Shown: positions 109-31,512, numbered from the stretch's first letter. The stretch: 64,000 nt of DNA from a bacterium (GCA_036514535.1 DATBWZ010000039.1:5919-69918), one strand, 5' to 3'. The notes: a model not told the origin generated them from the sequence alone. A program made the numbers and translations.

Positions 109-3100
109 ATGGTTGTAAAATGTGAGAAATGCGGGGCAATGTACATCCTGAGCGATGAAAAATTAAAGGCTCAGGAATGGAAATTACCCTGTACGAAATG
201 CCAGCATGTCACGCAGTTAGCTCCTCCTGGCGAAGGCAAACCGGAAGGGGATAAGCCCTCTTTGTCTGCTGTCCAGGCTCCTGTAAAGGAAGCGGCTCCG
301 GTTTTGCCTCAGGAGACAGCGGAACTTCTGAACCAATTTAAAGCCAATCCCAAATCCAAAACATTTTTCCCGGTAGCAGAATATTATTTCAAAGAGGGAA
401 AATTTGAGGATGCGGTAAATATACTTAATGAAGGATTGAAGCATAATCCTGCCTATCTTACTGCAAGGCTTATTCTCGGCAGGACATACGTAAAACTTGA
501 GCGATGGAAGGAAGCTGTAAGTGAACTGGAGAGGGTCTGCAATCAATCAAGGGAAAACACCCTTGCCCAGAAGAACCTTGCAATAGCTCTCAAGGCTCTT
601 GGCAGGATTGAAGAGGCAAGGCGGGCAATAGATGTAGTTAAGATGTTTGAGCCTAAGGATATAGAGGCGGATAATATACTCAAAGAATTGATAGAATCCG
701 GGGAATCGCTGGCGCAGCCGGAAGAATCAGCGACGCATGAACCAAAGTCAGAGGTTGAAATGGAACAACCTGCTGATAGCGGGTTGGAGAACATACTTCA
801 GGCGCCGGAGGAAGAATCTATAGAAAAAGAAACGGCAGATGTAGATATCTCCGGGGCTATTGATGATTTGTTTGCAAAAGCAAAGGGGGCCACAGAATTT
901 ACAGAAGGGCCAGCAAAGCAGGAAGAAAAAGGGCTGCCGGAAGAAGGCGCATTTTCTGTTGACAAAGAGCCGTTGGAAGATAAAGCCCTCTCTAATGAGA
1001 ACCTGCCTGTTGATAAGGATGTTTTTGAGGAAGAGTCCAGAGAATCTGAAGAAGGTTTACCCGTCGATAAGGATATATTTGATAAAGATTTAGAAGAGGG
1101 ATTTGGGGAAACAGGGGAATCTAAATTGCCGGAAGAAGGCTCTTTTACCCTTGGAGAGGACCCTTCCGCTGAACTTGCATCAGAGATGACTTCTGAAGAA
1201 TCTCAGGTAGAGGATCAGGTTGGAGAGTCAGCGGAAAATGCATTCAATGACTTGGAAAAGAGGACGGAAGACGCGGACAGTGTAGTTGAAGGGTTTAATA
1301 CTGGAAGATTTGATGCTGGTGTAACCGCAGATGGTGTGATTGAGGATGTGTTCAAGGAAGAAGAAGGGGTTGAGATTGAAACAAAGGTGGAGCAAGAGCC
1401 ACTAACACCGCAGCTTGATGAAGAGATTCTTGCCGAGACGCGGCCCAAGGTTGTTGTGTCTCAGCCGACTGGGATATATACTGCTGGGACTGCGGCAAAA
1501 GAAACACAGAAAAAAATAAAAATTAAACCGCTTTATCTGTTGATTTTTGCCGGGTTGCTTATTCTTTCATCTGCGACAGGTTTTTATTACTGGGAGTTTG
1601 AATATACCGGCACACAGCCAAATGTAGAAAAATTAATCACTGTCAGCAAGGGGATACTCAAAGCTAACGAAGGAAAAAAGATTGAGGCAGAACGGCTTTT
1701 TACAGAAGCAACAGTAGCATACAGTACTGATTCTGTTAACGGGTATCTGAAATCCTATGACCTTTTTAAGCGGTGCATTGTGCTTGACCACAATAATCCT
1801 AAGTACTTTGCGCTTCTTGCCGAATCTGCTGCGGAACTCAGCATTTTTATTAATGACAAAAGGTACCTTGACGAGAGCAACATGCTTTCCTCCCGCGCCC
1901 TTGAAATGGCTCCGGATAATCATTACTCCCAGAGGGCGATCGCCCATTTTTATAAAGTGCAGGGAAAACCGTCAGAGGCTTTAGTGTACATTACCAAGGC
2001 AATTTCCACAGATACAAAGGATATTAATGCGCTGATTTTGCAGGGGGAGATACAAAGCATGCTTCCGGAAAGCCTGAGTGATGCTGAGGTGTCTGTTAAT
2101 GAGGCACAGTCTATACGTGAGACCGCTCCCGGGTATTATCTCCTCGGGAAGATTTATGAAAATAAAGAGTCTTTTGATCTTGCGCTGACTAACTTTAAAA
2201 AAGCAGTTTCATTGCATCCGGATTATCTGAAAGCGATTCTTTCTGCGGCCGGTACGGCTCAGAGGCTTGGACTCTATGCTGACGGAGAAACACTGCTGAC
2301 ACAAGCATATTCTGGGATTAATAAATTTCACATTATTGAACAGAAACAAATTTACCTTTCAATGGCGTCGCTAAACCTGGAGATTGGAAAGCTGGAAAAC
2401 GCAAAAAGCGATCTTGAAGAGGTTTTAAAAATATCCAAATCTGATGTTCAGGCTTTTCTTATGCTGGGAGATGTTTCAGTAAAACTAAACAGGTATGAGG
2501 ATGCTGCCGGCTATTACGAGAATGCTCTCAAGATTGAGCCACAGAATCCAGAAGCGAACTATCTTGCTGGTGCGGTTTACGTCAGAATTAAAAAATACAC
2601 GCAGGCGATAGAAAGATTAAAAAAGGCGGTTGAGGGTCAGCCGAAGGAGTTCAAATACCATCTTGGCCTTGGTATTGCTTACCTGTATAGCGACCAGTTA
2701 AATGACAGTTTAACAGAATTAAAGAAGGCACAGGAGATTGATCCTAAAAATTCCGATGTTCTCTATAACCTGTGCAATGTTTATCTGAAAAAAGGCGAGA
2801 AAGAGACTGCGCTGGAGGTAGCAAGGAAAGCAGTGGCGTCGGCGCCTGATTCCATTGATGCCCGGATGGCGCTGAGCAGGACCTATGAACAACTTGAACG
2901 TAATCCGGAGGCAAAAGCAGAACTTGAAAAAGCAATAAAATTAGATCCTAAAAACGGAAAACCTTATTCCAATCTTTCACGAATATTCCTGAAGGAAGGG
3001 AATATAGCATCTGCCTTTGCCTATGGCGAAAAAGCGGTAAGTCTTTCAAAAGATCCGGCAACCTGCCGCACTTTTGCTGATATTCTGGAGAAAAAGGGCG

Positions 3101-4023
3101 ATGCGGCCGGGGCAATAGAATACCTTCTTAAAGCAATTGAAATGGAGCCATACAATTATTTCAATTATTACCGTCTGGGGGAGATTTATTACAGTAAAAA
3201 GGATCTTAATAATGCGCTGAAAGCCTTTCAGGATTCTGTATCGCATAACAGTACGGATCTTTTATCCAATTTTAACATAGGAAGGGCGCTTGAGGACAAA
3301 GGGGAACTTGACAATGCCTACGCACAGTATGAGAAAGTTATTTCCAACATTGATAATAAGTTTTCTCCGGCATATTTCAGGATGGGAATTATTTCAGAAA
3401 AGAAGAATGACATTTCAAAATCTATTTCAAAGTATGAAAAATCTGTGGAATTTGACAAATCCAGGGCTGAATACTTTTATTATCTTGGGAAAGCGCAATA
3501 TTCTATGAACGATTTTGTAAAGGCGCAGCACAATCTTGAATCAGCGGTAAAACTGGCTCCGGAGTTTGCCCCATCTCATCTTGTTCTGGGAATGGTCTAT
3601 GATTATCTCGGGGATTATCAAAGAGCGCTTCACGAATACGCAATGAGTTTAAAACTTTCGCCACAGAATGCCGAACCGCTTATAAAGACCGCTAATATAT
3701 TGAGAGCCCAGGGAGAGTACGCAAAATCCTTTGAGGTTCTTAAGCAGGCAATGAAGGTGGATCCCTCCAGACCCAGCCTCTATTATTCCCTTGGACTTCT
3801 TTACGAGGAGAAGGGGGAACTTGAGCGCGCAATGGACAGTTATAAAAGAGCAATAAGCCGCGACGCTAATTATCCGGAACCATATTACAACCTTGGGTTT
3901 ATGTATTCAAAACTTGGCAGAAATTCCGAAGCAAGGGAAAACTTGCTAAAAACCCTATCTCTTGGCATTGGTTCTGCGCAGGCTAAGAAAGCTAAAGAAG
4001 CCCTTGCAAAATTGCCGCAATAG
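109..4023 (+). CDS. Giant TPR-repeat protein (1304 aa). N-terminal MJ0042-type CxxC...CxxC zinc ribbon, TPR block, ~300-aa acidic low-complexity linker, one TM helix, then a long TPR array.
   Basis: N-terminus CEKCGAMY...CTKCQHV (two CxxC pairs). TM segment LYLLIFAGLLILSSATGFYYW. Dozens of TPR-like 34-aa repeats (A/Y/L spacing, 'NPxxxxA' patterns). Long ORF with no competing frame. Confidence 0.85.
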   Translation: MVVKCEKCGAMYILSDEKLKAQEWKLPCTKCQHVTQLAPPGEGKPEGDKPSLSAVQAPVKEAAPVLPQETAELLNQFKANPKSKTFFPVAEYYFKEGKFEDAVNILNEGLKHNPAYLTARLILGRTYVKLERWKEAVSELERVCNQSRENTLAQKNLAIALKALGRIEEARRAIDVVKMFEPKDIEADNILKELIESGESLAQPEESATHEPKSEVEMEQPADSGLENILQAPEEESIEKETADVDISGAIDDLFAKAKGATEFTEGPAKQEEKGLPEEGAFSVDKEPLEDKALSNENLPVDKDVFEEESRESEEGLPVDKDIFDKDLEEGFGETGESKLPEEGSFTLGEDPSAELASEMTSEESQVEDQVGESAENAFNDLEKRTEDADSVVEGFNTGRFDAGVTADGVIEDVFKEEEGVEIETKVEQEPLTPQLDEEILAETRPKVVVSQPTGIYTAGTAAKETQKKIKIKPLYLLIFAGLLILSSATGFYYWEFEYTGTQPNVEKLITVSKGILKANEGKKIEAERLFTEATVAYSTDSVNGYLKSYDLFKRCIVLDHNNPKYFALLAESAAELSIFINDKRYLDESNMLSSRALEMAPDNHYSQRAIAHFYKVQGKPSEALVYITKAISTDTKDINALILQGEIQSMLPESLSDAEVSVNEAQSIRETAPGYYLLGKIYENKESFDLALTNFKKAVSLHPDYLKAILSAAGTAQRLGLYADGETLLTQAYSGINKFHIIEQKQIYLSMASLNLEIGKLENAKSDLEEVLKISKSDVQAFLMLGDVSVKLNRYEDAAGYYENALKIEPQNPEANYLAGAVYVRIKKYTQAIERLKKAVEGQPKEFKYHLGLGIAYLYSDQLNDSLTELKKAQEIDPKNSDVLYNLCNVYLKKGEKETALEVARKAVASAPDSIDARMALSRTYEQLERNPEAKAELEKAIKLDPKNGKPYSNLSRIFLKEGNIASAFAYGEKAVSLSKDPATCRTFADILEKKGDAAGAIEYLLKAIEMEPYNYFNYYRLGEIYYSKKDLNNALKAFQDSVSHNSTDLLSNFNIGRALEDKGELDNAYAQYEKVISNIDNKFSPAYFRMGIISEKKNDISKSISKYEKSVEFDKSRAEYFYYLGKAQYSMNDFVKAQHNLESAVKLAPEFAPSHLVLGMVYDYLGDYQRALHEYAMSLKLSPQNAEPLIKTANILRAQGEYAKSFEVLKQAMKVDPSRPSLYYSLGLLYEEKGELERAMDSYKRAISRDANYPEPYYNLGFMYSKLGRNSEARENLLKTLSLGIGSAQAKKAKEALAKLPQ
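930..1150 (+). repeat. Degenerate in-frame tandem repeats (~60 nt / 20 aa period) inside the acidic linker of the giant TPR protein.
   Basis: Recurring peptide units LPEEGAF / LPVDKDVFEEE / LPVDKDIFDKD / LPEEGSF and the matching nucleotide blocks (ctgcctgttgataaggatgtttttgag vs ttacccgtcgataaggatatatttgat). Confidence 0.45.
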
Positions 4024-4038
4024 CCTAATGACTCATTT

Positions 4039-5763
4039 ATGGTTCATAATAAAAAAATAATGCATCTTTTAATTATTCTTTTAATGATTATCTCCGGATG
4101 CGGAACTGCGGTTACAGCGACAAGGACTGGATCTACTTATCCTGTCAAGAGTTCCTATAACAGCAATGCGGATGCGAACTATCATTTCATTCTTGGCAAG
4201 GTGTATTATTTTGACGGTAAGTATGACGATGCTGAGAGGGAATTCAGGGAGGCAGTGAGACTTAATCCATTTGTGACTGATATAAGGGTTGAACTTGCTG
4301 TAATTCTTTTAAAAACCGGAAAAATTGCGGAGGCGAAAGAGGCTCTGCGGCAGGTGGCGGATACTGAGGAATACGCACCCCAACTGCATGCAATTCTCGG
4401 AAAAATATATTATGCGTCGAAGGAATACGATAATGCCGTAAAAGAGTTTGAAAAGAGCATACAGGAAAATCCGGATGACGCTGATGTGTACCTGGATCTG
4501 GGAACGGTCTATGCTGAAATTAATGAGTATGTTAAGGCTAGAGAGACATTGGAGAGTCTTTTAAAAGTGATTCCGGATTTCTTTCTTGCTTACTATTATA
4601 TAGCCAAAATAGAAATAGCAAGAAACAATCTGGATGAAGGAATTAAATATTACAATCTCTCCCTGCAGAATAATCCTGATTTTCTCGGGGCGTGGCTTGA
4701 ACTTGGAGAATTATATGAAAAGACCGATATGATTAATGAAGCCATAACTGCCTATAATAAAGCTCTGGACCTTATGCCGCAGAATATAAACATTCACGAG
4801 AAAATAGGATATCTCTATACAAAGAATGACAACGCAAAGGCAGCTATCAAATATTTTAAAGAAGCCTTGTCCATTGATTCAACGAACCTTGATCTCCACC
4901 TGAAACTTGGCATAATCTATTTCAGCGAAAAGGATTATGCCAGGGCTATTGATGAATTTAATTATATACTTGTTTCAATACCAGATAGCCCTGTCGCGCT
5001 CTATTATCTTGGAATGACCTATATTGAGAAAGGCGAGTATTCAAAAGGCAGAGCCGAATTATTGAAAATGCCATCCGACACCAAACTGTATACGGATTCC
5101 ATTATTTGGGTTGCGTTTTCGTATCAGAAAGAAAACAATCTCAAGGATGCAATTGATTATCTCAAGTCAAAAATATCTGATGGCGTTAAGTCTGTTGAAT
5201 TGTACAAGGTAACGGCTTCTTATCTCACTGATGCTAAATTATTTGACGAGGCAATTGAATTTGCAAACCAGGGGTTAAAGGATTTCCATGATTCGGAGAC
5301 GCTTTACTTCCAATTGGGTATTATATACGATGAGTATGGTAAGCCTGACATTGCAGAGGAAAAGATGCAGAAGGTCATTGATATAAATCCTGATAATCCG
5401 CTTGCTCTCAATTATATTGGATACACCTGGGCAGAGAAAGCGATTAATATTGATAAAGCAGAACAGATGATTAAGAAAGCCCTTGGGTTAAGACCAAACG
5501 ATGGATTTATTGTGGACAGCCTTGGATGGATTTATTACCAGAAGGGCCGGTACAAGGATGCTATGAAAGAACTCCAGAGGGCGTTAAAACTTGCCGGAGA
5601 TGATCCGATAATTTTTGAACATATTGGGGATACTTATTTTAAGCTTGGAAAGCCAGAAAAGGCAGTGGAATTGTACACCCATGCGCTTACCATGAAGATG
5701 AAGGATAAAGATTTTGTGCGGATCAAGGATAAATTGGGCATTCTTAAAAAGAATGCGCATTGA
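4039..5763 (+). CDS. TPR-repeat lipoprotein (574 aa).
   Basis: Signal peptide with lipobox (LLMIISGC). The body is TPR repeats throughout. Starts 16 nt after the preceding TPR gene. Confidence 0.8.
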   Translation: MVHNKKIMHLLIILLMIISGCGTAVTATRTGSTYPVKSSYNSNADANYHFILGKVYYFDGKYDDAEREFREAVRLNPFVTDIRVELAVILLKTGKIAEAKEALRQVADTEEYAPQLHAILGKIYYASKEYDNAVKEFEKSIQENPDDADVYLDLGTVYAEINEYVKARETLESLLKVIPDFFLAYYYIAKIEIARNNLDEGIKYYNLSLQNNPDFLGAWLELGELYEKTDMINEAITAYNKALDLMPQNINIHEKIGYLYTKNDNAKAAIKYFKEALSIDSTNLDLHLKLGIIYFSEKDYARAIDEFNYILVSIPDSPVALYYLGMTYIEKGEYSKGRAELLKMPSDTKLYTDSIIWVAFSYQKENNLKDAIDYLKSKISDGVKSVELYKVTASYLTDAKLFDEAIEFANQGLKDFHDSETLYFQLGIIYDEYGKPDIAEEKMQKVIDINPDNPLALNYIGYTWAEKAINIDKAEQMIKKALGLRPNDGFIVDSLGWIYYQKGRYKDAMKELQRALKLAGDDPIIFEHIGDTYFKLGKPEKAVELYTHALTMKMKDKDFVRIKDKLGILKKNAH

Positions 5764-6522
5764 ATGGTTTCACTGCAAAAAATTTGCTTCTTGATTCCTA
5801 TCGTTGCGGTTGTTTTTTCATGTCAACATCATGAAAGTTATGTCCGGCAGCCACAACTTGACAGAGAAATTATTAATGACCTGATTACAAGAGAAGCGGA
5901 AATTTCAAGTATAAAAACGCGCGCTTGGATAAAGATTCATTCACCCGAGGGCGAGTTCAGTTTTGACTGCATCTACGCTGCTGAATCTCCCTCAATGTTT
6001 CGCATAGAACTCCTGAAGCCGTTCGGCATGGTTGCCGTTTCCGTCGCAACAGACGGCGACAGGCTTTACATTATAAATTACAATGATAATTTATGTTTTG
6101 ATGGTGCGCTGAACAGGAAAAACATAAAGGCATTTCTGCCCTTTGAAGTGGACCCTCATATACTTACCTCCATCATTTTAACAAAAATTCCATATCTTGA
6201 TTCTTCCGCAATAAACGGGGTAAATAAAACTGACAGTGAAATTGAATTTCTCTATGCTCCGAATATAACGGATACAGGCATAATTAGAATTTCAGATATT
6301 CCTGAGCGCTCAATATCCGGCGACCTTGATGGAATGACTTTTGAGTACAAAAAGTTCTATAATGCAAGGGGGACGATATATCCAACGGTTGTCAATTTAA
6401 AACATGGAAGTGTAAGCATAGAGATGAAACTGGAGGACACCGTGTTTAATTCTGAAGAGAAAGATGCTGAGTTTTTTTTGCGGATACCGGGAAACTGTAA
6501 AAAAATACCTGAAAGGAATTGA
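5764..6522 (+). CDS. LolB-like / DUF4292-like outer-membrane lipoprotein (252 aa).
   Basis: Lipobox VVFSCQ. Size and position (directly after TPR genes, stop-start junction TGAATG) match the LolB-fold lipoprotein family that often follows TPR genes. Family assignment is from memory, not alignment. Confidence 0.45.
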   Translation: MVSLQKICFLIPIVAVVFSCQHHESYVRQPQLDREIINDLITREAEISSIKTRAWIKIHSPEGEFSFDCIYAAESPSMFRIELLKPFGMVAVSVATDGDRLYIINYNDNLCFDGALNRKNIKAFLPFEVDPHILTSIILTKIPYLDSSAINGVNKTDSEIEFLYAPNITDTGIIRISDIPERSISGDLDGMTFEYKKFYNARGTIYPTVVNLKHGSVSIEMKLEDTVFNSEEKDAEFFLRIPGNCKKIPERN

Positions 6523-8171
6523 TGAAGATGAAAAAAATATTAATGATTTTGATATTGTTTCTGTTTTTTTCTTCTGTTGCGCTTATCTTGGTAAAGCAGA
6601 AAAAATCTGGTAAAGTATCCGGACAGATAAAAACAGAAAAAGCGGACCCGGCATACGGAGACGCAATCATTGTCGGCTCAATCGGAGATGCAAGCAATTT
6701 ACTGCCGCCACTTGCTTCTGATAGCGCTTCTTTTGACATTATTGGTCTGGTTTATAATGGCATTGTGAAATACGATGAAAATCTGAACCTTACCGGCGAC
6801 CTTGCCGAGTCCTGGGACATCTCACGGGATTGCAGGACGGTGGTATTCCACCTGAGGAAGGGGGTGAGATGGCACGATGGAGCGGAGTTTACAGCCTACG
6901 ATGTGGAATTCGGATACAAAACAATCGTGAATCCAAAAACGCCGACAGCATATTCAAGCTCTTTTGAAGAGGTGAAAAATGTTGAGGTAACTGACAAACA
7001 CACTCTTAAAGTGGTTTATAGAAAACCATTTGCTCCAGGACTGTCAACTTGGTCAAATCTTGTGGTTCTGCCAAAGCATCTTTTGGAGGGGAAGGATATA
7101 ACCAAGAGCGGCCTTTTCAGGCATCCAGTGGGGACAGGCCCGTATAAATTCAAAGAATGGACTCCAGGCCAAAAGATTGTTTTGGAGGCAAATCCAGACT
7201 ACTTTGAAAAGGGAAAGCCATATATACAACGTTACATTTACAGAATAATCCCTGATCAGTCAACCATGTTTCTTGAACTCAGGGGCGGAAATATTGACGA
7301 GACGAGTCTTACGCCGATACAGTTCAGAAGGCAGACGGATACCCCTTATTTTGCTGATAATTTTAAAAAGTACAATTACCTTTCCTTTGGTTATACCTAC
7401 CTCGGTTATAATTTGAAAAAGGAAATTTTCAAGGATAAAAGGGTCAGACAGGCAATTTCCTATGGAATAAACAAGAAAGAGATAATTGACGGAGTTCTTC
7501 TGGGCCTTGCTTCTCCTGCAAGTGCCCCATATAAACCAGACACCTGGGTCTATAATCCGGGGATAAAGAAATATGATTACAACCCTGTTAAGGCTAAGGA
7601 GTTGCTTCAGGATGCAGGATGGGCAGATACTGACGGCGACGGTTTTATGGATAAAAATGGCAAAAAGTTTGAATTTTATGTGACTACGAATCAGGGCAAT
7701 GATCAGAGGTTAAAAACAGCGGAGCTTGTGCAGCGGAATCTGGGAGAAATAGGAATTAAAATGAATATCAAAGTATTGGAATGGACAGCCTTTCTGGACG
7801 CCATTGACAGAAGGAATTTTGATGCTGTGATAATCGGTTGGAGCCTTGATCCGGATCCGGACCAGTATGATATCTGGCACTCAAGCAGGACAGGGCCGAA
7901 GGAATTTAATTTTGTATCCTATGAAAATCCCGAGGTTGACAGGCTTTTGGAGGCTGGCAGAAATGCATGCTCCATTGATAAAAGAAAAGGGTACTACTTT
8001 AAATTGCAGGAGATCCTTGCCGAGGATCAGCCATATACTTTTCTTTATTTTCCGCAATCGCTGCCGATTGTCCATTCAAGATTTTACGGAATAAAACCTG
8101 CGCCCGCTGGCATCGGGTATAATTTTGTGGACTGGTTTGTTCCTCAACAAATGCAGAAATATTATTTTTAA
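6519..8171 (+). CDS. ABC transporter substrate-binding protein, family 5 (peptide/nickel, OppA/DppA-like).
   Basis: Signal/TM N-terminus. Length 550 aa. SBP_bac_5-like motifs (GVRWHDG, dipeptide-binding-like core, C-terminal ...WFVPQQ). 4-nt overlap with the upstream gene. Confidence 0.85.
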
Positions 8172-8173
8172 CC

Positions 8174-9154
8174 ATGCTTGTTTTTATCGCAAAGAGACTG
8201 GGCGGCATAATCCCAATATTGTTCGGGATTACAATAATTTCCTTCATAGTGATCCATCTTGCTCCGGGTGAGCCGGAGATTGCAGAACTGCAGATGAATC
8301 CGAAGGTTTCTGCAGAGGCGAGGATGCGGCTGAGAGAGTTTTACGGCCTTGATAAGCCGCTGTACGAGCAGTATTATATCTGGCTGAAGAAATTTATAAG
8401 ACTTGATTTCGGAGAATCTTTTTCCCCTGACCACAGACCTGTGATTGATAAAATTGCCGAAAGGCTGCCTATTACAATTGCTATTAATTTGCTGAGCATC
8501 CTGTTCATCTTTTTATTTGCTATTCCCATTGGAGTTTTTTCAGCGATTTACAGAGACACATTATTTGACAAGTTTTCTACACTTTTTGTTTATATAGGAT
8601 TTGCAATTCCCGGGTTTTGGCTTGCGTTGATTCTCATGTATGTTTTTGGCCTGAAACTGGGTATACTGCCCATCTCCGGGATTACCTCCATAGTTGCGAA
8701 AGATGATATGTGGTGGAAAATTATTGATGTGTCAAAACACCTGATACTTCCTGTGTTCGTGAGCGCCTTTGGCGGGCTTGCGGGTCTCTCCAGGTATGTC
8801 CGTTCAAATATGTTTGAAGCGCTGCATCAGGATTATATAACCACTGCCAGGGCAAAGGGACTGAACGAAGGCAAGGTCATTTTCATCCACGCCATGAAGA
8901 ATGCCTTGTTGCCGGTTGTGACAATTATCGGTCTGTCCGTCCCGGAGCTTATCGGCGGGAGTGTTATCTTTGAAAGCGTATTTGCGATCCCGGGAATGGG
9001 GCAACTCTTCTATCAAAGCGCAATGATGAGAGATTATCCAACAATCATGGGGGTTCTTGCAATAGTGGCAGTCCTGACTCTGATTGGCAATCTTATTGCT
9101 GATGTATGCTACGCAATTGCGGATCCAAGGATCAGGGTTGGTAGGGACAATTGA
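8174..9154 (+). CDS. ABC peptide transporter permease (DppB/OppB-like).
   Basis: BPD_transp_1 signature region ...TARAKGL.. and EAA-like motif. Six predicted TM helices. Typical 326 aa length. Confidence 0.85.
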
Positions 9155-9984
9155 TTAAAGAATTTTTGCAAAACAAAATGTTTCTTTTCGGTTCAATGCT
9201 TATAATTTTCTTTGCGTTAATAGGTATCTTTGCCCCTTATATTACTGCACACGACCCTGTTGCTATCAGCATAAAAGAGATATTACAGCCGCCGTCAAAT
9301 GAACACCTCATGGGGACCGATGAATTGGGAAGGGATGTTTTCAGCAGGTTTGCTTACGGGACAAGGATATCCCTGTCCGTAGGAATAATTGCAGTGTTGA
9401 TAAGGGTGATAATCGGTATCCTGGTGGGCGCTGTTGCGGGTTATTACGGAGGCATTGTTGATGCAGTTCTCATGCGGTTTGTGGATGTGATGCTCACATT
9501 TCCGACATTATTTTTGCTTCTTGCACTTGTGGCATTTCTGGAACCGAGCATATTCACCGTAATGGGCGTCATTGGTGCTACAACCTGGATGGGGCTTTCC
9601 CGCCTTATTAGAGCAGAGGTGCTCTCTCTCAGGGAGAGGGGCTTTGTGGAATCCTCAAAGGCTCTCGGTAGTAGCAGCACAAGAATTATGCTCAGGCATA
9701 TTCTCCCGAATGCTATGGCTCCGGTTATAGTTTCTGCTATCCTGGGTGTTGCCGGAGCAATACTTGCCGAATCAAGCCTGAGTTTTCTCGGATTGGGAGT
9801 GCCTCCACCGGTGCCAAGCTGGGGCAGTATTATTTCCGATGGCAAAGATAATCTTGATATCGCTCCATGGCTTTCTTTTTTTCCGGGAGTAGCAATACTC
9901 TTGACAGTTTTGGGCTTTAATCTGATAGGTGACGCATTGAGCGAAGAGATGCAGCCGAAGGGTGGTAAGGGTAAGCCAAATTGA
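9151..9984 (+). CDS. ABC peptide transporter permease (DppC/OppC-like).
   Basis: N-terminal TM, ...SSKALGSS...RHILPNA... permease motif. Overlaps the previous permease by 4 nt. Confidence 0.85.
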
Positions 9985-10017
9985 CAGAACGGACTATTCA
10001 GATTAAAATGTTTATAA

Positions 10018-11646
10018 GTGTTGCATTGGGATAAAATGAAAAAATTCTTCAATTATGCCGCTCTGATGTTTATAATTGTATTTTTTGGCTGTGAAAGCGG
10101 AACGCAAAACAGAATAAACTCGCTTTCCAAAGAAGGGAAAGAATCTCTTTCAACCGGAGATTACGAAGGGGCAAAGGGAAAATTCAGCGAGATATTAAGC
10201 CTTGATGGAAGTCATTGCGACGGACTTTACGGGATGCTTCTTGGAGAAATGATGGCTTTTATTGATTCCGTTTATGGTTACATTGATTTGACGAATTCAA
10301 TAACCGGGAATCAAAGCGCTCAGTCCGGTTTGAGATTACAGCAGGCTGGCGTGGTTGATGGAGTTATCTACGAAGTTGCCAATATTTTTCTTGACTACTT
10401 TAAAAATCTGGATTTTTATGCCGTTAGGGTTAAGGAAATGAAATGTTCTTTCAGCCTCTCAATGCTGCCAATATCACGCTCAGGTATTGAATTCCGAGGC
10501 GAATGGGATGAACACGAGGCGCATTTTATAAGTATGCTGTCAAATGGGGGGAAGGCAATTGTTAACTTCTTAATTGCCCATAATCTGGATGTGAATACAG
10601 TGCCTATTCGTGATGCCCGTGATTCGGGTTTGCTTAAATTTAATCCCGAGGATGTTGTTGTTTTTTTGCGTTCAGTTGGGTTTATTGTTGAGACAAGTCC
10701 GGAACTATTGAAATGGAGCACAAATGCTGTGCGCAGGGCAAGCTTTGATGCTGTTCCTCAGTACTGCGCCGCAATGTTTCATGAGGCGAAGGAATTGCTG
10801 AATATTTTTACAGAACAGGACAAAACCCCGTACGATGATATAATTGCCTGGGTTGATGTTGATAATGATGGCATTCCTTCATCAGGGGATAAATTAATCC
10901 TTAATGTTTATAAAATGGATACTGGCGAGCCAGCCGTTGATCTCAGCGGGTACACCGGCATTTTTCTGCCTATACTCGCTTCATCCATGGACGATTGGAG
11001 GGCGAAAATTACAAGAGTTGAGGATGCTTTTGCTTTCAGGCTTTCGTCCGGTGAAAGGATTTCCTTTGATGAGATTCTGCCATGGTTTGGAAGCATGCTG
11101 GGAATATCCAATACCCTTGAATTTGATATTATTGCGCTCTTTAAGGGTATGGATTACACAGGGGAAAATGTAAGACCCCTGAGGGACCTTCTACCTTATC
11201 TTTTTGATCATGACGGTAATTCCAGTACCTACCAGATTTTTCTTGTAGAAGGAGAAATATTCGGAACACCGTTACAAGGAAAAGAAGGATACTTGTTTAA
11301 TGGGGATGCCAAACACTTCGGTATTGGAACCGATTGGAATCCATCGGATACCAGTATAGACCATGCTTCAGGGGAAATAAAGCCGGACTGTGCTGTTCCC
11401 AATCAGACTGGGGTGCAGATAGGCATTGACAGTTACGGCAATCCGGTTTATCTGCCACTTATCTATGTGGGGTGGCCAGATCCATCATTTAACGGGGCAG
11501 TGTATACGAATGATGGAGGAACCTGCGCGGACTCTTCCCAGTTTAGCAAGACAACCGTATACAGCTTGAACAAGGAGTTAAACAGGCTGATTGCTGGATG
11601 GGGAAACTTTTTCTACGCTGTAGTTGCCGGCGGGGTATCATTCTGA
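10018..11646 (+). CDS. Large hypothetical lipoprotein (542 aa), function unknown.
   Basis: Signal peptide plus lipobox-like FFGCES. No motif I can assign. Sits where ABC ATPase genes would be expected. Confidence 0.6.
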   Translation: MLHWDKMKKFFNYAALMFIIVFFGCESGTQNRINSLSKEGKESLSTGDYEGAKGKFSEILSLDGSHCDGLYGMLLGEMMAFIDSVYGYIDLTNSITGNQSAQSGLRLQQAGVVDGVIYEVANIFLDYFKNLDFYAVRVKEMKCSFSLSMLPISRSGIEFRGEWDEHEAHFISMLSNGGKAIVNFLIAHNLDVNTVPIRDARDSGLLKFNPEDVVVFLRSVGFIVETSPELLKWSTNAVRRASFDAVPQYCAAMFHEAKELLNIFTEQDKTPYDDIIAWVDVDNDGIPSSGDKLILNVYKMDTGEPAVDLSGYTGIFLPILASSMDDWRAKITRVEDAFAFRLSSGERISFDEILPWFGSMLGISNTLEFDIIALFKGMDYTGENVRPLRDLLPYLFDHDGNSSTYQIFLVEGEIFGTPLQGKEGYLFNGDAKHFGIGTDWNPSDTSIDHASGEIKPDCAVPNQTGVQIGIDSYGNPVYLPLIYVGWPDPSFNGAVYTNDGGTCADSSQFSKTTVYSLNKELNRLIAGWGNFFYAVVAGGVSF

Positions 11647-11648
11647 AT

Positions 11649-12938
11649 ATGATGTCGTTTGACTTTGACAATGCCTTAACAGGTTTAAAAAATGGAAGAA
11701 ATTTTTCACTGGTAACATTTGATAATCTAACAGCTTTATTAAAAAAAATTAAAGAGGGTAGCGGAGAATTTATCTTTGCACGGATTTTTGAGGATCTTTG
11801 CGTCATCAAAGAAATCAAGCAGATTTCCAGAGAGATCCGGGGGAAATTTGACTCGCTCATCGTGGCAGGGATTGGAGGATCATCTCTCGGGGCAAGGTGC
11901 CTGTATGATAATTTTTTAAACAAAAAAGAACGAAGGGGGCTGAAGGTATTTTTTATGGAAAACATTGATTCACAGTCTATTGCCTCAATTCTTGATCTTG
12001 TTAACCCGGCAAAAACCGCGGTAAATTTTATCAGCAGGTCCGGCACTACACTGGAGACGGTTACGCATTTTTTTATACTCAGGGAAATTTTCCGCAAAAG
12101 GCTCGGGAGCGATTACGGCAGCCATTTTTATGTAACCACGGCAAACATGTCCTCCCCGCTTGGCAGGGCTGCTGCCAGCGAGGGCTACCGGCTTATCACC
12201 CTTCCGCCTGAACTCTCAGGCAGGTATTCCGTCCTGAGCCCCGTAGGACTGCTTCCCGCATCGTGTGCCGGAATTGATATTGATGAAATTATTGCAGGCG
12301 CCAGAGCAGGAAAGGGGGCTTCGCTGAAAAAACATATTTACAGCAATCCTGCATTGATGGGGGCGGCAGTAAATTATTTTCATTATAAAAAAGGCAAAAA
12401 AATTGCAGCAATTATGCCCTACAGGGATTCCCTGTTCAGTTTTGGTGAATGGTTTGCCCAGATCTGGGCAGAAAGTCTGGGGAAAAAAAGCTGGAACGGT
12501 ATTGCTAACGGGCAAACCCCAATCAGGGGAATTGGAGTTCAGGATCAGCATTCACTCATGCAACTCTACCTTGACGGGCCTGACGATAAGATTGTGATCT
12601 TTCTTACTGCTGGTGCGGAATACGATTTTAAAATAAAAAATTCAGGTGAAAATTTCAAATATTTAGAGGGGAAAACTGTCAATGACGTTCTTTTTGCGGA
12701 ACAGAAGGCAACCGAGATTGTCCTTGGATCCAGAGAAAGGCCGAGCTGGTCTGTTCACATGGATGCTGTCTCTCCGTATAATATGGGAGCGCTGTTCTTT
12801 ATTTTTGAGACTATGACAGTTTTTGCTGCAAACCTTTTTAAGGTAAATCCCTTTGATCAGCCGGCTGTGGAAGAGATAAAAGGATGGGCAAAGAAGATTC
12901 TTGCCTCAGGTTCAAATCGTGCCAAAAAAGAAAATTGA
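11649..12938 (+). CDS. pgi: Glucose-6-phosphate isomerase (bifunctional archaeal/bacterial short PGI type).
   Basis: PGI signature IVAGIGGSSLGARC and ...GIGVQDQHS...  The ORF track starts at 11598, but the ATG at 11649 (MMSFDF) avoids overlap with the upstream gene. Confidence 0.8.
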   Translation: MMSFDFDNALTGLKNGRNFSLVTFDNLTALLKKIKEGSGEFIFARIFEDLCVIKEIKQISREIRGKFDSLIVAGIGGSSLGARCLYDNFLNKKERRGLKVFFMENIDSQSIASILDLVNPAKTAVNFISRSGTTLETVTHFFILREIFRKRLGSDYGSHFYVTTANMSSPLGRAAASEGYRLITLPPELSGRYSVLSPVGLLPASCAGIDIDEIIAGARAGKGASLKKHIYSNPALMGAAVNYFHYKKGKKIAAIMPYRDSLFSFGEWFAQIWAESLGKKSWNGIANGQTPIRGIGVQDQHSLMQLYLDGPDDKIVIFLTAGAEYDFKIKNSGENFKYLEGKTVNDVLFAEQKATEIVLGSRERPSWSVHMDAVSPYNMGALFFIFETMTVFAANLFKVNPFDQPAVEEIKGWAKKILASGSNRAKKEN

Positions 12939-13689
12939 CGCCGGAATAATTCTCGGATCCGGAATTGACATGCCCCCACATCTCAGAATTGTTGAAAGGA
13001 TTCCGTATTCAAAATTGGGGCTGCCTATCCCGTCTGTAAAAGGGCATGGGAATTTGTTTGTTATTGCGCAAATGGCTGGAAAAATGGCAGGGATCTTCAC
13101 CGGGAGGCTCCACCTTTACGAAGGATATTCTCCACAGGAGGTATGCCAGCAGGTCAAAATTATAAGAAACTTCGGGGCGGACAACATAGTCATCAGCAAT
13201 GCTTCAGGTATTGTTAATAAAAATTTCAAACCTGCGCAGATTATGTTGATTAAGGACCAGATAAACCTTACTGGCAAAACGCCTTTCATCGCAAAAAAGA
13301 ATGATGTGAAATTCCTTAATTGTTCAGGTATTTATTTTATTGAAAAATTAAAGTATTTTAATAGGATATGTAAGAAATATAATGTAAAACTTGAAGTTGG
13401 TGTACTTGCTGGTGTGCGTGGACCTGAATATGAAACGCCTGCTGAGGTCAGAATGCTGAGACGGCTTGGCGCAGATGCTGTCTGCATGTCAACGGTCATT
13501 GAGGCGCTTCAGGCGCATGTGTTGGGTATGCGGGTGTTTGGAATTTCTGTGCTGACGAATTATGCCGGTGAAGGCGTTGCGCATAACGCGCACAAGGAGG
13601 TTCTTAATATTGCCCGAACATGCTCTGGCGCGGTCTGGGGGTTGATAGAAGCGTTTGTTTTAAATAAACAACTTGAGGTTATGAAATAA
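12901..13689 (+). CDS. Purine nucleoside phosphorylase / 5'-methylthioadenosine phosphorylase family (PNP-I, trimeric type).
   Basis: N-terminal GIILGSGI, central ...MSTVIEA... and C-terminal ...SVLTNYAGEG... motifs typical of the PunA/MTAP family. Confidence 0.75.
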   Translation: MPQVQIVPKKKIDAGIILGSGIDMPPHLRIVERIPYSKLGLPIPSVKGHGNLFVIAQMAGKMAGIFTGRLHLYEGYSPQEVCQQVKIIRNFGADNIVISNASGIVNKNFKPAQIMLIKDQINLTGKTPFIAKKNDVKFLNCSGIYFIEKLKYFNRICKKYNVKLEVGVLAGVRGPEYETPAEVRMLRRLGADAVCMSTVIEALQAHVLGMRVFGISVLTNYAGEGVAHNAHKEVLNIARTCSGAVWGLIEAFVLNKQLEVMK

Positions 13690-13711
13690 ATTTATCTCTA
13701 TGTAATTAGGG

Positions 13712-15976
13712 TCAAAATCTGACTGAAATAAATCCGCCTAACCGTGTTCCGATCTCTCTTGCACGGTAGGTTGTTGAACTGTTACCATCTATCACTTGCG
13801 ATGCTTCAAGATGTTTTCTGAACAGGAGGTTGGATCCGAAAAGTCCAACTTCCATTCGCCCGCCAAGCAGGGAATATCCGAGTTTCATATTCAGGTTTAC
13901 ATATGGCTTTACCGATTTAACAGAGATCCCATCTGAAATATCAGTTCCTGGCAGGAATACCCGCTCTTTGAAGCCCGTTGAATAATTTGCCGAAAGAGAA
14001 CCCTCAATTTTATCATACATCTGGATAATGAATCCGGCATTTGTTATGTGATTTGGATTGGAATCATCAGGATTAATGTGGGTAATATCCGGATCTTTAG
14101 ACTTGTCAATAGCCCTCACATGAGCATAATTAAGAAAAAAACTTAAGTCTTTTATCAGAATGACCCTTAGATCTGCCTCTCCGCCGAACGAATCAAAATC
14201 TTCCGGAAAATTTTTATAACCGTTCTCCGCTGGAACAAATTCTATAAAATTTTTCAGGCGATTATAAAAAGTTGCAATCATAAGATTTATCCTTCTGAAA
14301 AATACAACTGAATAATTTACCTGGTAGGCTGTTATTTCTTCGTTCAAAAGTCCTACAGGTGCGTTTCTGATTTCAACGAAAGAGGGCTGACGGTATCCAT
14401 TTCTTAAAGAAAATCCTATAGAACTTTCTTTTGCCGGAATAAAAGATATTCCCAAAACATAGGAGTTTGCCTGGGGTGTGAGGGAGTTCCAGTCAAATCT
14501 GTAGGAAAGGGTCAGCTTTAAGTTCTCAAAGGGTGAAATTTCGTTTGAAATAAACACCCCGATACCCCTCTGTGTTATTTTGTGTCCCGGAGTATCATCC
14601 GGGGAATATACATCTATGCTGATATTTCCACCCACCATTATCCTGTTCAATAGCCCGGCGTAAAGCAACTTTTGCGAATATAAATTAAAATCGTCAGAAC
14701 TTCCGCTGTAAGGTGGAACAGTTGTTCTGAGTTCTGGCGTATCAGAAAAAACAACATCCACCGGCTTGGTTACCATAATATTGTTTTTAACCAAATAACC
14801 TTCTATGAGTAAATTTCTGTAAGACAATGTTGCCTGGCCGTAAGATGATTCAAACTGAGAATAGAAGTCCCCCTGATTTGTAAAAAAGGGCTTTCTGTTT
14901 TTTAAATATCCAGTGCTTAAAGAAAATAATTTACCACTGTCAGGGCTGTACTCAAAATAAGGGTTCACCTGAATAGAGCTGAAGAATTGCTTATCAGGAT
15001 CAGCCCATGAATTTAATTGCCCGTACTCTGTTGAAATCTTGGCTCCGATATTGCCTGTTTTTATCCCGCTGCCAGCATACATAAAAAGACTATTCCCATT
15101 GCCAGCGCGCAGGCTGGTTCTGAAAGTTTCCATTTCGTAAGGCTTTTTTGTCCTTATATCAATTACGCCCGCATAGGCGCCTGAGCCGTACAGGGATGAG
15201 AGGGGCCCGTTCACGATCTCTATTTTTTTTATATCGTTAAGCGATGTTTGCATTGCTGACCACCACGGGACTCCTAATGATTTTATTTCTGCGTTTCTTC
15301 CGTCCACCATTACTTTGATCTGATTGTTCCGGTTTGCCATGCCCCTTGCTCCCAATTCATACAGCCCTGAATCAATATTGCGTGCATCAATGCCAGGGGC
15401 AAATCTGAGAATATCCGGAATAAAATAAACTCCCATGGCATGAATTTCTTGATCATTTAATACTGTAACGGGTAATAACACCTCTTCTGGAGGTAGATCG
15501 TATCTGGAAGGGGTATGGATGGTATCTTCCGGAATAACAGGAGACTGTTGAGTAACGGGATTCAATTTCTGGTCCTGCTGTTTACTATCAAAAACTTGTA
15601 CATACTGGGCTTTTTTGTGATCCCTGAAAATTAAATGCGGGAGTCCGGTTCTGTCAATAAGAAATATAAAATATTTAAGTCCGGGGTAAATTACCTCCCC
15701 TGCGGGTATAGTTCCTTCAAATATAGCGCCATTTCTCTTCATAAGAATTATCTTGAAATCATTTTCCCCGGAGATGCAATAGCCAATGCTTGCATGCAGG
15801 ACATTCTCCGGTTCATATATTATTGCCTGGATTTTGAGCGGCTGATGCGCTATTGCCTGGACAGGAGGTGTGTGAATTACATTGAATGATATTATTTCTG
15901 CTGAGTAGGATATAAGTTCTAAAGTCATGATATTTGATAGCATAAAAATAAAAGATAGTTTCCTGAATATACGCAT
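13712..15976 (-). CDS. TonB-dependent outer-membrane receptor with an extra ~170-aa N-terminal domain.
   Basis: Signal peptide. Plug-domain motif IEIVNGPLSSLYGSGAYAGVIDIRTKK. Long beta-rich barrel region. C-terminal aromatic residue (…SVRF). Confidence 0.75.
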   Translation of the reverse strand: MRIFRKLSFIFMLSNIMTLELISYSAEIISFNVIHTPPVQAIAHQPLKIQAIIYEPENVLHASIGYCISGENDFKIILMKRNGAIFEGTIPAGEVIYPGLKYFIFLIDRTGLPHLIFRDHKKAQYVQVFDSKQQDQKLNPVTQQSPVIPEDTIHTPSRYDLPPEEVLLPVTVLNDQEIHAMGVYFIPDILRFAPGIDARNIDSGLYELGARGMANRNNQIKVMVDGRNAEIKSLGVPWWSAMQTSLNDIKKIEIVNGPLSSLYGSGAYAGVIDIRTKKPYEMETFRTSLRAGNGNSLFMYAGSGIKTGNIGAKISTEYGQLNSWADPDKQFFSSIQVNPYFEYSPDSGKLFSLSTGYLKNRKPFFTNQGDFYSQFESSYGQATLSYRNLLIEGYLVKNNIMVTKPVDVVFSDTPELRTTVPPYSGSSDDFNLYSQKLLYAGLLNRIMVGGNISIDVYSPDDTPGHKITQRGIGVFISNEISPFENLKLTLSYRFDWNSLTPQANSYVLGISFIPAKESSIGFSLRNGYRQPSFVEIRNAPVGLLNEEITAYQVNYSVVFFRRINLMIATFYNRLKNFIEFVPAENGYKNFPEDFDSFGGEADLRVILIKDLSFFLNYAHVRAIDKSKDPDITHINPDDSNPNHITNAGFIIQMYDKIEGSLSANYSTGFKERVFLPGTDISDGISVKSVKPYVNLNMKLGYSLLGGRMEVGLFGSNLLFRKHLEASQVIDGNSSTTYRAREIGTRLGGFISVRF

Positions 15977-18701: not shown

Positions 18702-20057
18702 TCAGGATTCAATATCTATTTTTTCTACCCTTTCCGGAGGTGGAAAATTAAATTTTACAGTAAAGCCTGCATTAAATATATCTCCCCGCGCAGTAAATCC
18801 AGGGTATGCGGGATTATCTATTAGGTTCTCTGGTTTTGTCGTCTCTCTTTTTGTCATCAACTGATACTGGAAATGCATATCCAGTTCAATCATTTTCGGA
18901 ACATTCATGATTGCCAGTGCGTAGCCCATGCCTGTTGAAATTATATGTGTGTTGCTGTCAATTAGATTTGAAATCCCGGTCTGGGCAGGCACAGGGGACT
19001 GTCTGAAGATGTATCCTCCCCTCACTGCAAGTTTGTGATCAATCATTGTGTATTCCGCTCCTATTTTAGGAAGCAGGGTGTCACGAAGCCCTGGATCATT
19101 GCGTGTCAGCGGAGTCATTGCTTTTCCTAAGCCTTCATTGCCTAAAGTTACAGCTACCCATGGCGGTGTATAGGCTGACCATTGAACAAACCCGAGATCG
19201 GCTGCCATTGTCAGGGAGTCGTTCATAAAATATGAGAAGCCGATTGTAATCTGTTGAGGTGAATGCTGACCGCCCATATCAAGATTTATTGGGCCAGTGA
19301 GATCGTCGTTAAGTGTAGTTGAAACCTTTACCTTCTTTTCCCCGCGGTATGAAAGGCCAATGCGGTATTTTGCAGCATTATACAGTATTCCCAGATATGG
19401 CGAAATATTAAGGGGGAATTCTCCTGTAGCCTCAGCGTAAAAAGGTTCGGCTGTCATGTCAGTTTCCAGCATAAGTTTTAAATCGGCAAGCACGCTTACG
19501 CCAGCGCCTACACTAAGATATTTGTTTACCTGGTATCCAGCTCCTGCGAGAATAATAGTTGTGTAGGGCAGTTCTTCAAATAGCAGTGTTATTGGTTCGG
19601 ACTCCGGTTTAAATCTTTCTTTTATGAGAAGATGTCCCTTTGCTACATGAATAAGAACTCCAAAGGCAATATGTTTGCCAAATATAGGTCCCACCTTGTT
19701 TATACCGCCAATGCTGAATCCGTAGGGACTATCCATGTCGGATGCATCATCAAGTTTAAGCTGGGCGGCAAGGCTTTTCCCCTTGAATTCAAAATTTTCG
19801 TATGGATATAAATAGGAAAATTCAGTGGTTGTTCCATACGTAGTATTTACAATAGCCGCCGGGTTGTAATAAAGACCCGTTGGATCTGTTGCAAGTGTTG
19901 TATAGGCATTCCCCATTGCTGTTGATCTGGAATCAACGCCAAATATGTTATAGGAATTGGCGTATAACGACGATGCAGTGACTGCGAACAAGGTTAACGC
20001 TAAAAATGTTTTTATTTTTTTCATATCAATCCTCCTTCTAAATTTATTTAATTTCAA
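18702..20057 (-). CDS. FadL/TodX-family outer-membrane hydrophobic-compound channel (paralog 1).
   Basis: Signal peptide. N-terminal LYYNPAAI (NPA motif of the FadL family). Beta-barrel-like alternating hydrophobic pattern. About 450 aa. Confidence 0.7.
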   Translation of the reverse strand: MKLNKFRRRIDMKKIKTFLALTLFAVTASSLYANSYNIFGVDSRSTAMGNAYTTLATDPTGLYYNPAAIVNTTYGTTTEFSYLYPYENFEFKGKSLAAQLKLDDASDMDSPYGFSIGGINKVGPIFGKHIAFGVLIHVAKGHLLIKERFKPESEPITLLFEELPYTTIILAGAGYQVNKYLSVGAGVSVLADLKLMLETDMTAEPFYAEATGEFPLNISPYLGILYNAAKYRIGLSYRGEKKVKVSTTLNDDLTGPINLDMGGQHSPQQITIGFSYFMNDSLTMAADLGFVQWSAYTPPWVAVTLGNEGLGKAMTPLTRNDPGLRDTLLPKIGAEYTMIDHKLAVRGGYIFRQSPVPAQTGISNLIDSNTHIISTGMGYALAIMNVPKMIELDMHFQYQLMTKRETTKPENLIDNPAYPGFTARGDIFNAGFTVKFNFPPPERVEKIDIES

Positions 20058-21352
20058 AAATCCGCAGCAAACGCTACATTAAATTTTTCAATAATTGCCC
20101 TGTAGAATCCTGTTGAAGAATACTGGTTATTTGATACTGTAATGTGTCTTGAGTTTAAAGGTTGATAGTGGGTAAACCCGCCGCTGATTTTTAGGTTCTT
20201 TGATAATCTGTATTCTCCGGATATAAAGGCAAGGATCTTGTCAAATTCAAGGTTTAATGCCGAAATATACTCGGAAGGAATACCGCTCGGATCATATCCA
20301 AAGCCAAACCCGATCTTAGAAATTTTGTTCGGAGAGTACCTTAAGTCAAACTTCCAGTTTATCGTGTCTACAAATTTACTTTGCAGTTTGTAGGGATTGA
20401 ATTTAAGCAGGTTCAGCAGATTCTGCATGGTTGCGTCATCCGATATAAGATCTACGGTAATATTCTTGTTTACGGACCAGTCATACCATTGGGCAATAAA
20501 ATTTGATTCCCACTGCTGGCTTAATAAATATTTTGCGCCGAAATTTATCGCCTGCGGAAAGTTCTGGTGCGCAACAGCGTCCAGGTCTAATCCGTCACCC
20601 AGCACAGAGAGCAGGGGACTGTTTGCTTCTGGTCCCCTTGTTATGTATGCAGGCCCTTTGTAATCTGCCTTGAATGGGGCAAGGTAAGCTGCCCCAATTG
20701 TTAATCCACGGACAGGTTTCGCTGTTACCCCCAAGCTGAAAGAAAACGCATTTGCTTTAAGCCAATCCAGATGAGCCCGCATTTCAGTTGAAGGGTCTTC
20801 GTTATTCAACAGACCTATGCTCATTTTTGCATCCAGCAAGCCGAATATGTAATTAAGAGCGGCACCGACGGAGAGTTTCTGAGAAATCATGTAACTTACC
20901 GCGGGCCCAAAATTTGCCGTAAAAAGGAGCGCATTTGTTCCATTGAAACGTTGCGGCCCGTCCTTGTCCCATGCCGCCATCCTGCCCATGTGCGCGTATC
21001 CGGCAATCCCAAAACTTAAAGGAATATTTTTTACTGAATGTGTTAATCCAAAGTAGGGGGGAGGTATAAAACTTGAGGCGGATGTTTCATCATATTTATT
21101 TAATTCTTTCAGGTCTGAACCATACTCAATTCTCTCATAAGAAACATTTTGATAAACAGGCGGCAGATCAAGAAAAATATTTGTTCCCTTTGAGAAACTG
21201 ATGGCGGATGGATTCCAATACAGCGCTGCAGGATTTGGGTCTGTTGGTCCTGAAAAGTTGCCGCCGATATCCGGGACCAGATATCCGTTTGAATGTAGTT
21301 TTGTGTGCAGGGATATTAATAATAAAAACAATAAAAACAAGTACCGCCGCAT
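20054..21352 (-). CDS. FadL/TodX-family outer-membrane channel (paralog 2).
   Basis: ALYWNPSAISF motif. C-terminal aromatic residue (…AADF). Signal peptide begins at the internal Met (MRRYLFLLFLLL), so the start is placed at 21352 rather than the ORF-track 21406. Confidence 0.7.
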   Translation of the reverse strand: MRRYLFLLFLLLISLHTKLHSNGYLVPDIGGNFSGPTDPNPAALYWNPSAISFSKGTNIFLDLPPVYQNVSYERIEYGSDLKELNKYDETSASSFIPPPYFGLTHSVKNIPLSFGIAGYAHMGRMAAWDKDGPQRFNGTNALLFTANFGPAVSYMISQKLSVGAALNYIFGLLDAKMSIGLLNNEDPSTEMRAHLDWLKANAFSFSLGVTAKPVRGLTIGAAYLAPFKADYKGPAYITRGPEANSPLLSVLGDGLDLDAVAHQNFPQAINFGAKYLLSQQWESNFIAQWYDWSVNKNITVDLISDDATMQNLLNLLKFNPYKLQSKFVDTINWKFDLRYSPNKISKIGFGFGYDPSGIPSEYISALNLEFDKILAFISGEYRLSKNLKISGGFTHYQPLNSRHITVSNNQYSSTGFYRAIIEKFNVAFAADF

Positions 21353-21440
21353 TAACCCCTCCGGACAATTTTGTAATAAATTATAATAAAAAGGGGCAAT
21401 TGTCAACTGCTTTTTTTTTCAGGCTGGATTCCTGCTTTGC

Positions 21441-26500: not shown

Positions 26501-26505
26501 ATCTC

Positions 26506-27206: not shown

Positions 27207-27216
27207 TTTATTCTCC

Positions 27217-28092: not shown

Positions 28093-28119
28093 TTTTATTA
28101 CCTTAATTAAAATTAAACG

Positions 28120-29508: not shown

Positions 29509-29526
29509 TACGACATCTACTCTGCT

Positions 29527-30057: not shown

Positions 30058-30081
30058 TTCCCCTCCTTTTGTGTTTTTGGT

Positions 30082-31503: not shown

Positions 31504-31512
31504 ATTCGTATC

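Follow-up and report, generated by a model that had tools for sequence, protein, structure and literature searches.

How an importer is energised when the genes for its ATPases are missing, and what a large lipoprotein gene is doing in their place, are the questions raised by a 64,000-nucleotide (nt) stretch of bacterial DNA (GCA_036514535.1 DATBWZ010000039.1:5919-69918), referred to here as the window. The window encodes a substrate-binding protein (SBP) and two permeases of an ATP-binding cassette (ABC) importer of the PepT family, whose members normally use a DppD/DppF heterodimer as their ATPase. The expected position of these ATPase genes is occupied by a lipoprotein gene, which is followed by pgi, the gene for a glucose-6-phosphate isomerase (PGI). 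A sequence-only reading of the window offered two explanations, namely that the ATPases are supplied in trans or that the lipoprotein belongs to the transporter as an accessory part of a new kind. The explanation favoured here, with a probability of about three in four, is that two independent units abut: the half of a PepT importer that would receive its ATPases in trans, and a lipoprotein-pgi unit that is not part of the transporter.

The first unit (6522-9984) would constitute the extracytoplasmic and membrane half of a PepT type I importer, with one SBP and two permeases, while its two nucleotide-binding subunits would come from genes at other sites in the genome and dock in trans on the EAA helices. 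The second unit (about 9981-13689) would start from a promoter of its own within the 51 nt that precede the lipoprotein gene. Its lipoprotein is predicted to be lipid-anchored and extracytoplasmic, and the lipoprotein gene would be translationally coupled to pgi, a coupling that in this genome would also take in a purine-nucleoside phosphorylase gene. The features concerned are as follows.

6519-8171, plus strand: family-5 SBP of a PepT (Opp/Dpp/Nik) importer, with an N-terminal signal or anchor
8174-9154, plus strand: DppB/OppB/NikB-type permease (PermB, transmembrane domain 1), with an EAA-type coupling motif
9151-9984, plus strand: DppC/OppC/NikC-type permease (PermC, transmembrane domain 2), with an EAA-type motif
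9981-10009, plus strand: predicted promoter, a sigma-70-like match (TTGACA-17-TAAAAT) within the 51 nt between the permease and lipoprotein genes
10036-11646, plus strand: lipoprotein of an unnamed family, with the lipobox FFGC, a helical TPR-like scaffold at the N-terminus, a loop of DxDxDG-like pattern and a C-terminal domain that is novel
11649-12938, plus strand: pgi, encoding a short-type glucose-6-phosphate isomerase of 429 amino acids (aa)
12919-13689, plus strand: purine-nucleoside phosphorylase gene, overlapping the end of pgi

The importer and its missing ATPases

Assignment of the transporter genes relies on matches to protein families. The SBP matches Pfam SBP_bac_5 (1.5e-103, 347 bits), PermB matches BPD_transp_1 (4.6e-41, 141 bits) together with BPD_transp_1_N, and PermC matches BPD_transp_1 (1.7e-30, 106 bits) together with OppC_N. 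The best NCBIfam models are Opp4A (262 bits) and NikA (193 bits) for the SBP, both under their equivalog cut-offs, Opp2B (305 bits) and Opp4B (276 bits) for PermB, and Opp4C (326 bits) for PermC, with NikC also among the best. As all NCBIfam equivalog scores fall under the cut-off, the substrate class (peptide, nickel or opine) is not assignable, and an Rfam scan of the window for a riboswitch hinting at the substrate returned only two tRNAs, located elsewhere in the window. The locus resembles known PepT importers (TC 3.A.1.5; DppABCDF and NikABCDE of E. coli, Opp2 and Opp4 of S. aureus) in its family-5 SBP and two permeases, in the domains BPD_transp_1, BPD_transp_1_N and OppC_N, in the EAA motifs, in the order SBP-B-C and in translational coupling; it differs in having no DppD/DppF genes in cis or within 75 kb.

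The coupling described in the sequence-only reading is evident at both junctions, with a 2-nt gap between the SBP and PermB genes (TAA-cc-ATG) followed by a 4-nt overlap between the PermB and PermC genes (TTGA). The SBP open reading frame (ORF) opens at TTG 6519, the likelier start being ATG 6522 or 6528, and the alignments of PermC relatives begin at residues 1-3. Both permeases retain canonical EAA coupling-helix motifs, as read in their translations, and hence appear to be built to dock ATPases.

The same reading had reported that DppD/DppF genes are absent beside the SBP and permease genes, and the searches of the window agree. A scan for Walker A and LSGGQ motifs in every ORF of at least 150 aa detected no DppD/DppF gene in the 64 kb; the sole ABC ATPase is LptB (31513-32241, minus strand). 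LptB is ruled out as the missing ATPase, as it is an equivalog-level match (339 bits, cut-off 240) and its gene adjoins lptA and lptC. When six genuine DppD/DppF-type ATPases from related loci were compared with the window by tblastn, only LptB was recovered, at 27% identity. The possibility that the genes lie just outside the window was addressed with a strain-level twin contig (ENA k141_2337064, 75.4 kb), which reaches 3.7 kb past the left edge and 7.8 kb past the right edge of the window, and with a JGI contig (L096) that adds about 1.7 kb beyond this on the right. By gene tables and tblastn, no ABC_tran gene is present in the twin's flanks or on the JGI contig.

The PermC protein was scanned against one genome per GTDB species, revealing 80 related loci at 43-60% identity in Nitrospirota, Thermodesulfobacteriota, Bacillota, Chloroflexota and other phyla. 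The window's own genome is not among the GTDB representatives scanned, and the best match is 60% identical. The flanks of these loci were classed by phmmer and by motif, and ATPases were counted within 3 kb. Where at least 3 kb of sequence is available on each side (45 loci), ATPases are located downstream in 22, only upstream in three, and on neither side in 20 (∼44%); where at least 3 kb is available downstream (61 loci), 30 lack ATPases. An ORF-independent tblastn search found no ATPase-like sequence within ±10 kb of 18 of the 20 loci without ATPases; in the remaining two, the only ATPases are distant ones (about 30% identity) encoded on the other strand at a distance of 4-9 kb. The closest relatives are mixed, with ATPases present in L007, L009 and L015 and none in L010, L012, L014 and L016. 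The ATPase-less PepT cluster is an ordinary and frequent split arrangement.

Three related loci of Nitrospirota type (L008, L011 and L013) harbor ABC-ATPase-like ORFs of ∼750-920 aa upstream of the permease pair, which abut PermB in L008 and L013 and lie about 2 kb away in L011. Two convergent ATPase genes are additionally present downstream in L008 and L011. The large ORFs could represent either an unusual fused architecture or an artefact of ORF calling.

Importers that lack their own ATPase gene and are energised from a distant locus are established for the multitask ATPases MsmX, MsmK and MsiK (PMC7658222). The B. subtilis MsmX, S. pneumoniae MsmK and Streptomyces MsiK systems likewise consist of an SBP and two transmembrane domains with no gene for a nucleotide-binding domain (PMC7658222); they differ from the system described here, a member of the PepT family, in being CUT1 sugar importers with a MalK-type homodimeric ATPase. 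The proposal that the ATPases are supplied in trans is thus favoured indirectly, by the EAA motifs, the split frequency of ∼44% and the multitask precedent (PMC7658222). This frequency suggests that ATPase sharing is widespread in the peptide/nickel family, experimental proof being so far limited to sugar importers. For the transporter itself the consequence is small, as ABC importer operons without ATPase genes are already a known pattern.

The lipoprotein family and its pairing with pgi

The lipoprotein gene occupies the ORF 10018-11646 described in the sequence-only reading, with an FFGC lipobox and with pgi following. It encodes 542 aa from GTG 10018 or 536 aa from ATG 10036. The latter (MKKFFNY...) is the likely start since it is the one called in the 99% identical twin protein (P0001). 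The gap between the permease and the lipoprotein is therefore more likely 51 nt than the 33 nt first proposed. The lipobox reads IVFFGC followed by ESGT, with the signal peptide and cysteine read as MKKFFNYAALMFIIVFFG-C-ESGT. All genes from 4039 to 13689 abut or overlap their neighbours with the sole exception of this 51-nt gap. The promoter-like site within it matches 11 of 12 positions and is one of two sites scoring this high in a scan of 5500-14000 (8.5 kb).

No close relative of the organism carrying this transporter locus was found, and the association of the lipoprotein with the transporter was examined both ways, through more distant relatives of the transporter and through relatives of the lipoprotein. 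None of the 80 related transporter loci carries a member of the lipoprotein family, and the order SBP-permease-permease-lipoprotein is unseen among them; conversely, PepT components are present in none of the nine other lipoprotein loci. The suggestion that the lipoprotein is a new accessory component finds no support in either direction. A weak match to the lipoprotein profile in L010, 8.5 kb from an ATPase-less permease pair, was rejected, as it covers only the signal peptide and a generic TPR motif.

An exhaustive phmmer search of 1.84 billion representatives (50% clustering, E <= 1e-3) identified a family of 70 proteins, most of 500-600 aa, in which three much longer ones match the TPR-like motif only. 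A word-indexed search of 5.8 billion proteins detected just six close clusters, a profile of alignment A1 returned the same six, and a metagenome scan with alignment A2 yielded three loci, two of them already known. The ten family clusters that were looked up are named only 'hypothetical protein'; the cluster of the window lipoprotein includes NCBI HEY4715924.1 (locus tag VII00_02345). The window protein has no match in Pfam, NCBIfam or the PDB sequences. Its earlier description as motif-less holds for these three collections and fails for the family, which has invariant positions.

In an alignment of 29 members, the lipobox cysteine (C25) is invariant in 29 of 29, as are C67, C143, R218, D280, E411, E413, D430, H433, F434 and D457. 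The residues C67 and C143 probably form a disulfide, as judged from their conservation, which fits an extracytoplasmic location of the lipoprotein. D280 sits in the DxDxDG-like loop, a probable Ca2+ loop by its pattern, and EF-hand-like sequence matches are insignificant. The remaining E411, E413, D430, H433, F434 and D457 constitute a C-terminal cluster with the pattern E-x-E / D-x-x-H-F / D.

Remote-homology searches and structure prediction, which the sequence-only reading had recommended, recover a TPR-like N-terminus and leave the C-terminal domain without a known fold. At the sequence level there is one TPR-like motif; PDB profile matches cover residues about 27-65, and a single weak TPR_2 match is present in only three of the 29 members (best E 0.0012), the window protein having no Pfam match. 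The AlphaFold2 model is confident (pLDDT 88.5, pTM 0.86), and a fold search with it found no structural match in the PDB for the ∼200-residue C-terminal domain. TPR-containing envelope lipoproteins of the BamD, NlpI, PilF and LpoA type are scaffolds or adaptors. Only 100-170 of the 542 residues align with these proteins, with no membership of their sequence families; the ∼200-residue C-terminal domain is extra, and the BamD and NlpI neighbours are absent from the locus. The lipoprotein would most likely be a periplasm-facing, lipid-anchored scaffold or binding protein with an N-terminal TPR-like platform, co-expressed with pgi, and might have a metal or ligand site in the novel domain, a role proposed with low confidence. 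A SusD/RagB-like identity was rejected: 0 of 29 members match the SusD Pfam family, the fold match is partial and ranks 60th among generic TPR matches, and the receptor, encoded on the opposite strand, is neither adjacent nor conserved in other loci.

Comparison of the window with its twin (L004) reveals 11 nucleotide differences in 13.5 kb, five of which are in the lipoprotein gene, three of them nonsynonymous. This share is compatible with a fast-evolving exposed protein, the numbers being too small to test selection.

The lipoprotein gene ends at 11644-11646 and the ATG of pgi is at 11649, which leaves a gap of 2 nt. The pair recurs in three further loci. In L006 the lipoprotein is 44% identical and the gap is 3 nt (pgi at 1793-3043), in L097 the lipoprotein is 28% identical by BLASTP and the gap is 12 nt (pgi at 1901-3157), and in L089 the lipoprotein is 26% identical and overlaps by 4 nt the gene of a 354-aa PGI (8764-9828). 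The latter gene has no Pfam match on record and matches the window PGI at E=8e-37. Among the four pgi-linked loci, the lipoproteins are 26-44% and the PGIs 32-48% identical to one another, the two diverging in step, while the remaining flanking genes differ. The window PGI matches Pfam PGI along its full length (102 bits, cut-off 22). The PGIs are short (354-429 aa), and PRK03868, their best NCBIfam model, gives 243-260 bits for the three scanned (window, 243) with a cut-off of 487; on these scores, the pgi-linked PGIs are a divergent short subgroup. The gene downstream of pgi matches NCBIfam PRK08202 (219.5 bits, cut-off 218) and Pfam PNP_UDP_1. In this genome, the purine-nucleoside phosphorylase gene probably closes the lipoprotein-pgi unit, and its adjacency is not kept in the other lipoprotein-pgi loci.

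The proposed two abutting units and the alternatives

The lack of any ATPase gene within 75 kb could also mean that the SBP-permease-permease cluster is a decaying, non-functional remnant of an operon stripped of its ATPase genes. However, the three ORFs are full length with strong family scores (347, 141 and 106 bits), both EAA motifs are intact and translational coupling is preserved. The three transporter genes differ from those of the twin by three synonymous and no nonsynonymous changes, with no stops, a comparison of weak power. Moreover, 20 of the 45 related loci, spread over many phyla, keep the ATPase-less layout intact, which is unexpected for decaying remnants, and decay is considered improbable. 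A different possibility is that the lipoprotein is a lineage-specific accessory of the ATPase-less importer, such as a lipid-anchored protein for substrate capture or docking. It is adjacent to and co-directional with the transporter in the window and in the strain-level twin, read-through transcription over the 51-nt gap is possible, and a family member in L089 lies ∼1.5 kb downstream of a different ATPase-less importer. In opposition, co-occurrence is absent in both directions (0/80 and 0/9), the gap holds the region's best promoter-like site, L002 and L087 have at least 3 kb of upstream sequence and no ABC genes, and the tail of the gene upstream in L097 is not a permease C-terminus. Between the importer and the lipoprotein in L089 lie 221 nt and a convergent gene of 414 aa. 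A cytoplasmic ATPase is, in any case, not replaceable by a periplasmic lipoprotein. The absent co-occurrence largely refutes an accessory role, which is held to be very improbable.

A further reading goes beyond a shared unit and takes the lipoprotein and the short PGI as a true functional two-gene module that connects, for example, an envelope or extracellular glycan activity to hexose-phosphate metabolism. The pair is kept in four lineages at 26-44% lipoprotein identity with gaps of at most 12 nt and differing other neighbours, PGI divergence follows lipoprotein divergence, the PGIs form a divergent short subgroup under all NCBIfam equivalog cut-offs, and the invariant acidic/His cluster of the novel domain would be compatible with a catalytic or metal site. 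Yet the lipoprotein is exported while the PGI, which lacks a signal peptide, is cytoplasmic, the pair occurs in only four of about nine independent contexts, and a shared promoter alone can explain conserved adjacency. A functional module is a tentative possibility, doubtful as matters stand. The same tentativeness applies to the broader proposal that the lipoprotein founds an undescribed family of ∼70 representatives, with a C-terminal fold absent from the PDB, and forms an ancient, translationally coupled module with a short PGI. If the module were real, it would mean that hexose-phosphate metabolism is tied to an extracytoplasmic activity in a way so far unrecognised.

The explanation by two abutting units has several points to its disadvantage. 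In L089 (4060-8767), the importer upstream of the family member, consisting of Peripla_BP_2 and FecCD, has no ATPase on its 13-kb contig; an ATPase-less importer is thereby found near a family member in two of the four loci with at least 3 kb of upstream sequence. This proximity is treated as coincidence, given how common importers without ATPases are in these lineages, the differing ABC classes of the two importers and the very small sample; it is also the reason that an accessory role retains a very small chance above zero. The promoter is a sigma-70 consensus match only, in an unclassified lineage, and read-through from the permeases may place the lipoprotein on one transcript with the transporter in this genome. 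The P0002-P0005 clade lacks the lipoprotein-pgi pair, an absence that also counts against a functional module; the pairing looks ancestral and lost in this one sub-clade, as the linked L006 is 66% identical to the unlinked L002. To our knowledge, there is no biochemical link between a periplasmic lipoprotein and the cytoplasmic PGI, and a literature search on a lipoprotein-pgi operon found nothing relevant that could serve as precedent. Lastly, supply of ATPases in trans, though likely for this PepT importer, is argued from precedent and frequency, and the multitask ATPases documented by experiment serve sugar importers, not PepT systems (PMC7658222).

The more useful lead at this locus is the lipoprotein, with its confident model, its lack of a solved structural relative, its invariant acidic/His residues and its repeated coupling to pgi. 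The family provides a defined target for structural genomics and poses the question of what ties the inheritance of an exported protein to that of a central enzyme of glycolysis.

Neighbouring genes and other family members

The gene upstream of the SBP gene encodes a further putative lipoprotein.

5764-6522, plus strand: LolB-like/DUF4292-like lipoprotein gene, its stop codon overlapping the SBP start

Its product has weak matches to NCBIfam LolB1_Flavo (3.9e-5) and Pfam DUF4292 (0.005), both under the cut-off, and the junction with the SBP gene is TGATG at 6520-6524, in which stop and start overlap. This gene belongs to a tightly packed array at 109-6524 that also encodes a 1,304-aa Zn-ribbon/TPR protein and a 574-aa TPR lipoprotein. 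With the final stop codon of this array overlapping the start of the SBP gene, the transporter genes may share a transcript with envelope-related genes. Elsewhere in the window, on the minus strand, are two tandem FadL/Toluene_X outer-membrane channel genes (18702-21406), ahcY-metK (22275-24703) and a housekeeping cluster (24767-33261) of lptC-lptA-lptB-rpoN, two small ORFs, hprK, rapZ and ptsI.

In five of the other lipoprotein loci (L001, L002, L092, L003 and L005, of which L003 and L005 are at 46-50% identity), the family member is followed by a convergent gene for a beta-propeller-like, repeat-rich lipoprotein of ∼460 aa, located as follows.

L001, 1866-3254: ∼460-aa repeat-rich lipoprotein gene
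L002, 11642-13030: the same gene
L003, 1990-3372: the same gene
L005, 1712-3094: the same gene
L092, 1701-3089: the same gene

All through the P0002-P0005 clade, this gene and the family member are convergent, and it is accompanied by either an 880-aa gene of the penicillin-amidase family or a gene of ∼1,235 aa; in L002, a divergent 1,239-aa gene precedes the family member. The ∼460-aa lipoprotein and the ∼1,235-aa protein were rejected as conserved partners, as they are present only in this clade and have no homologue in the window. In L088, a methyltransferase-like fragment lies downstream of the family member. L087 (33% identity) harbors tandem paralogues at 3151-6086, which are 24% identical to each other and 12 nt apart.

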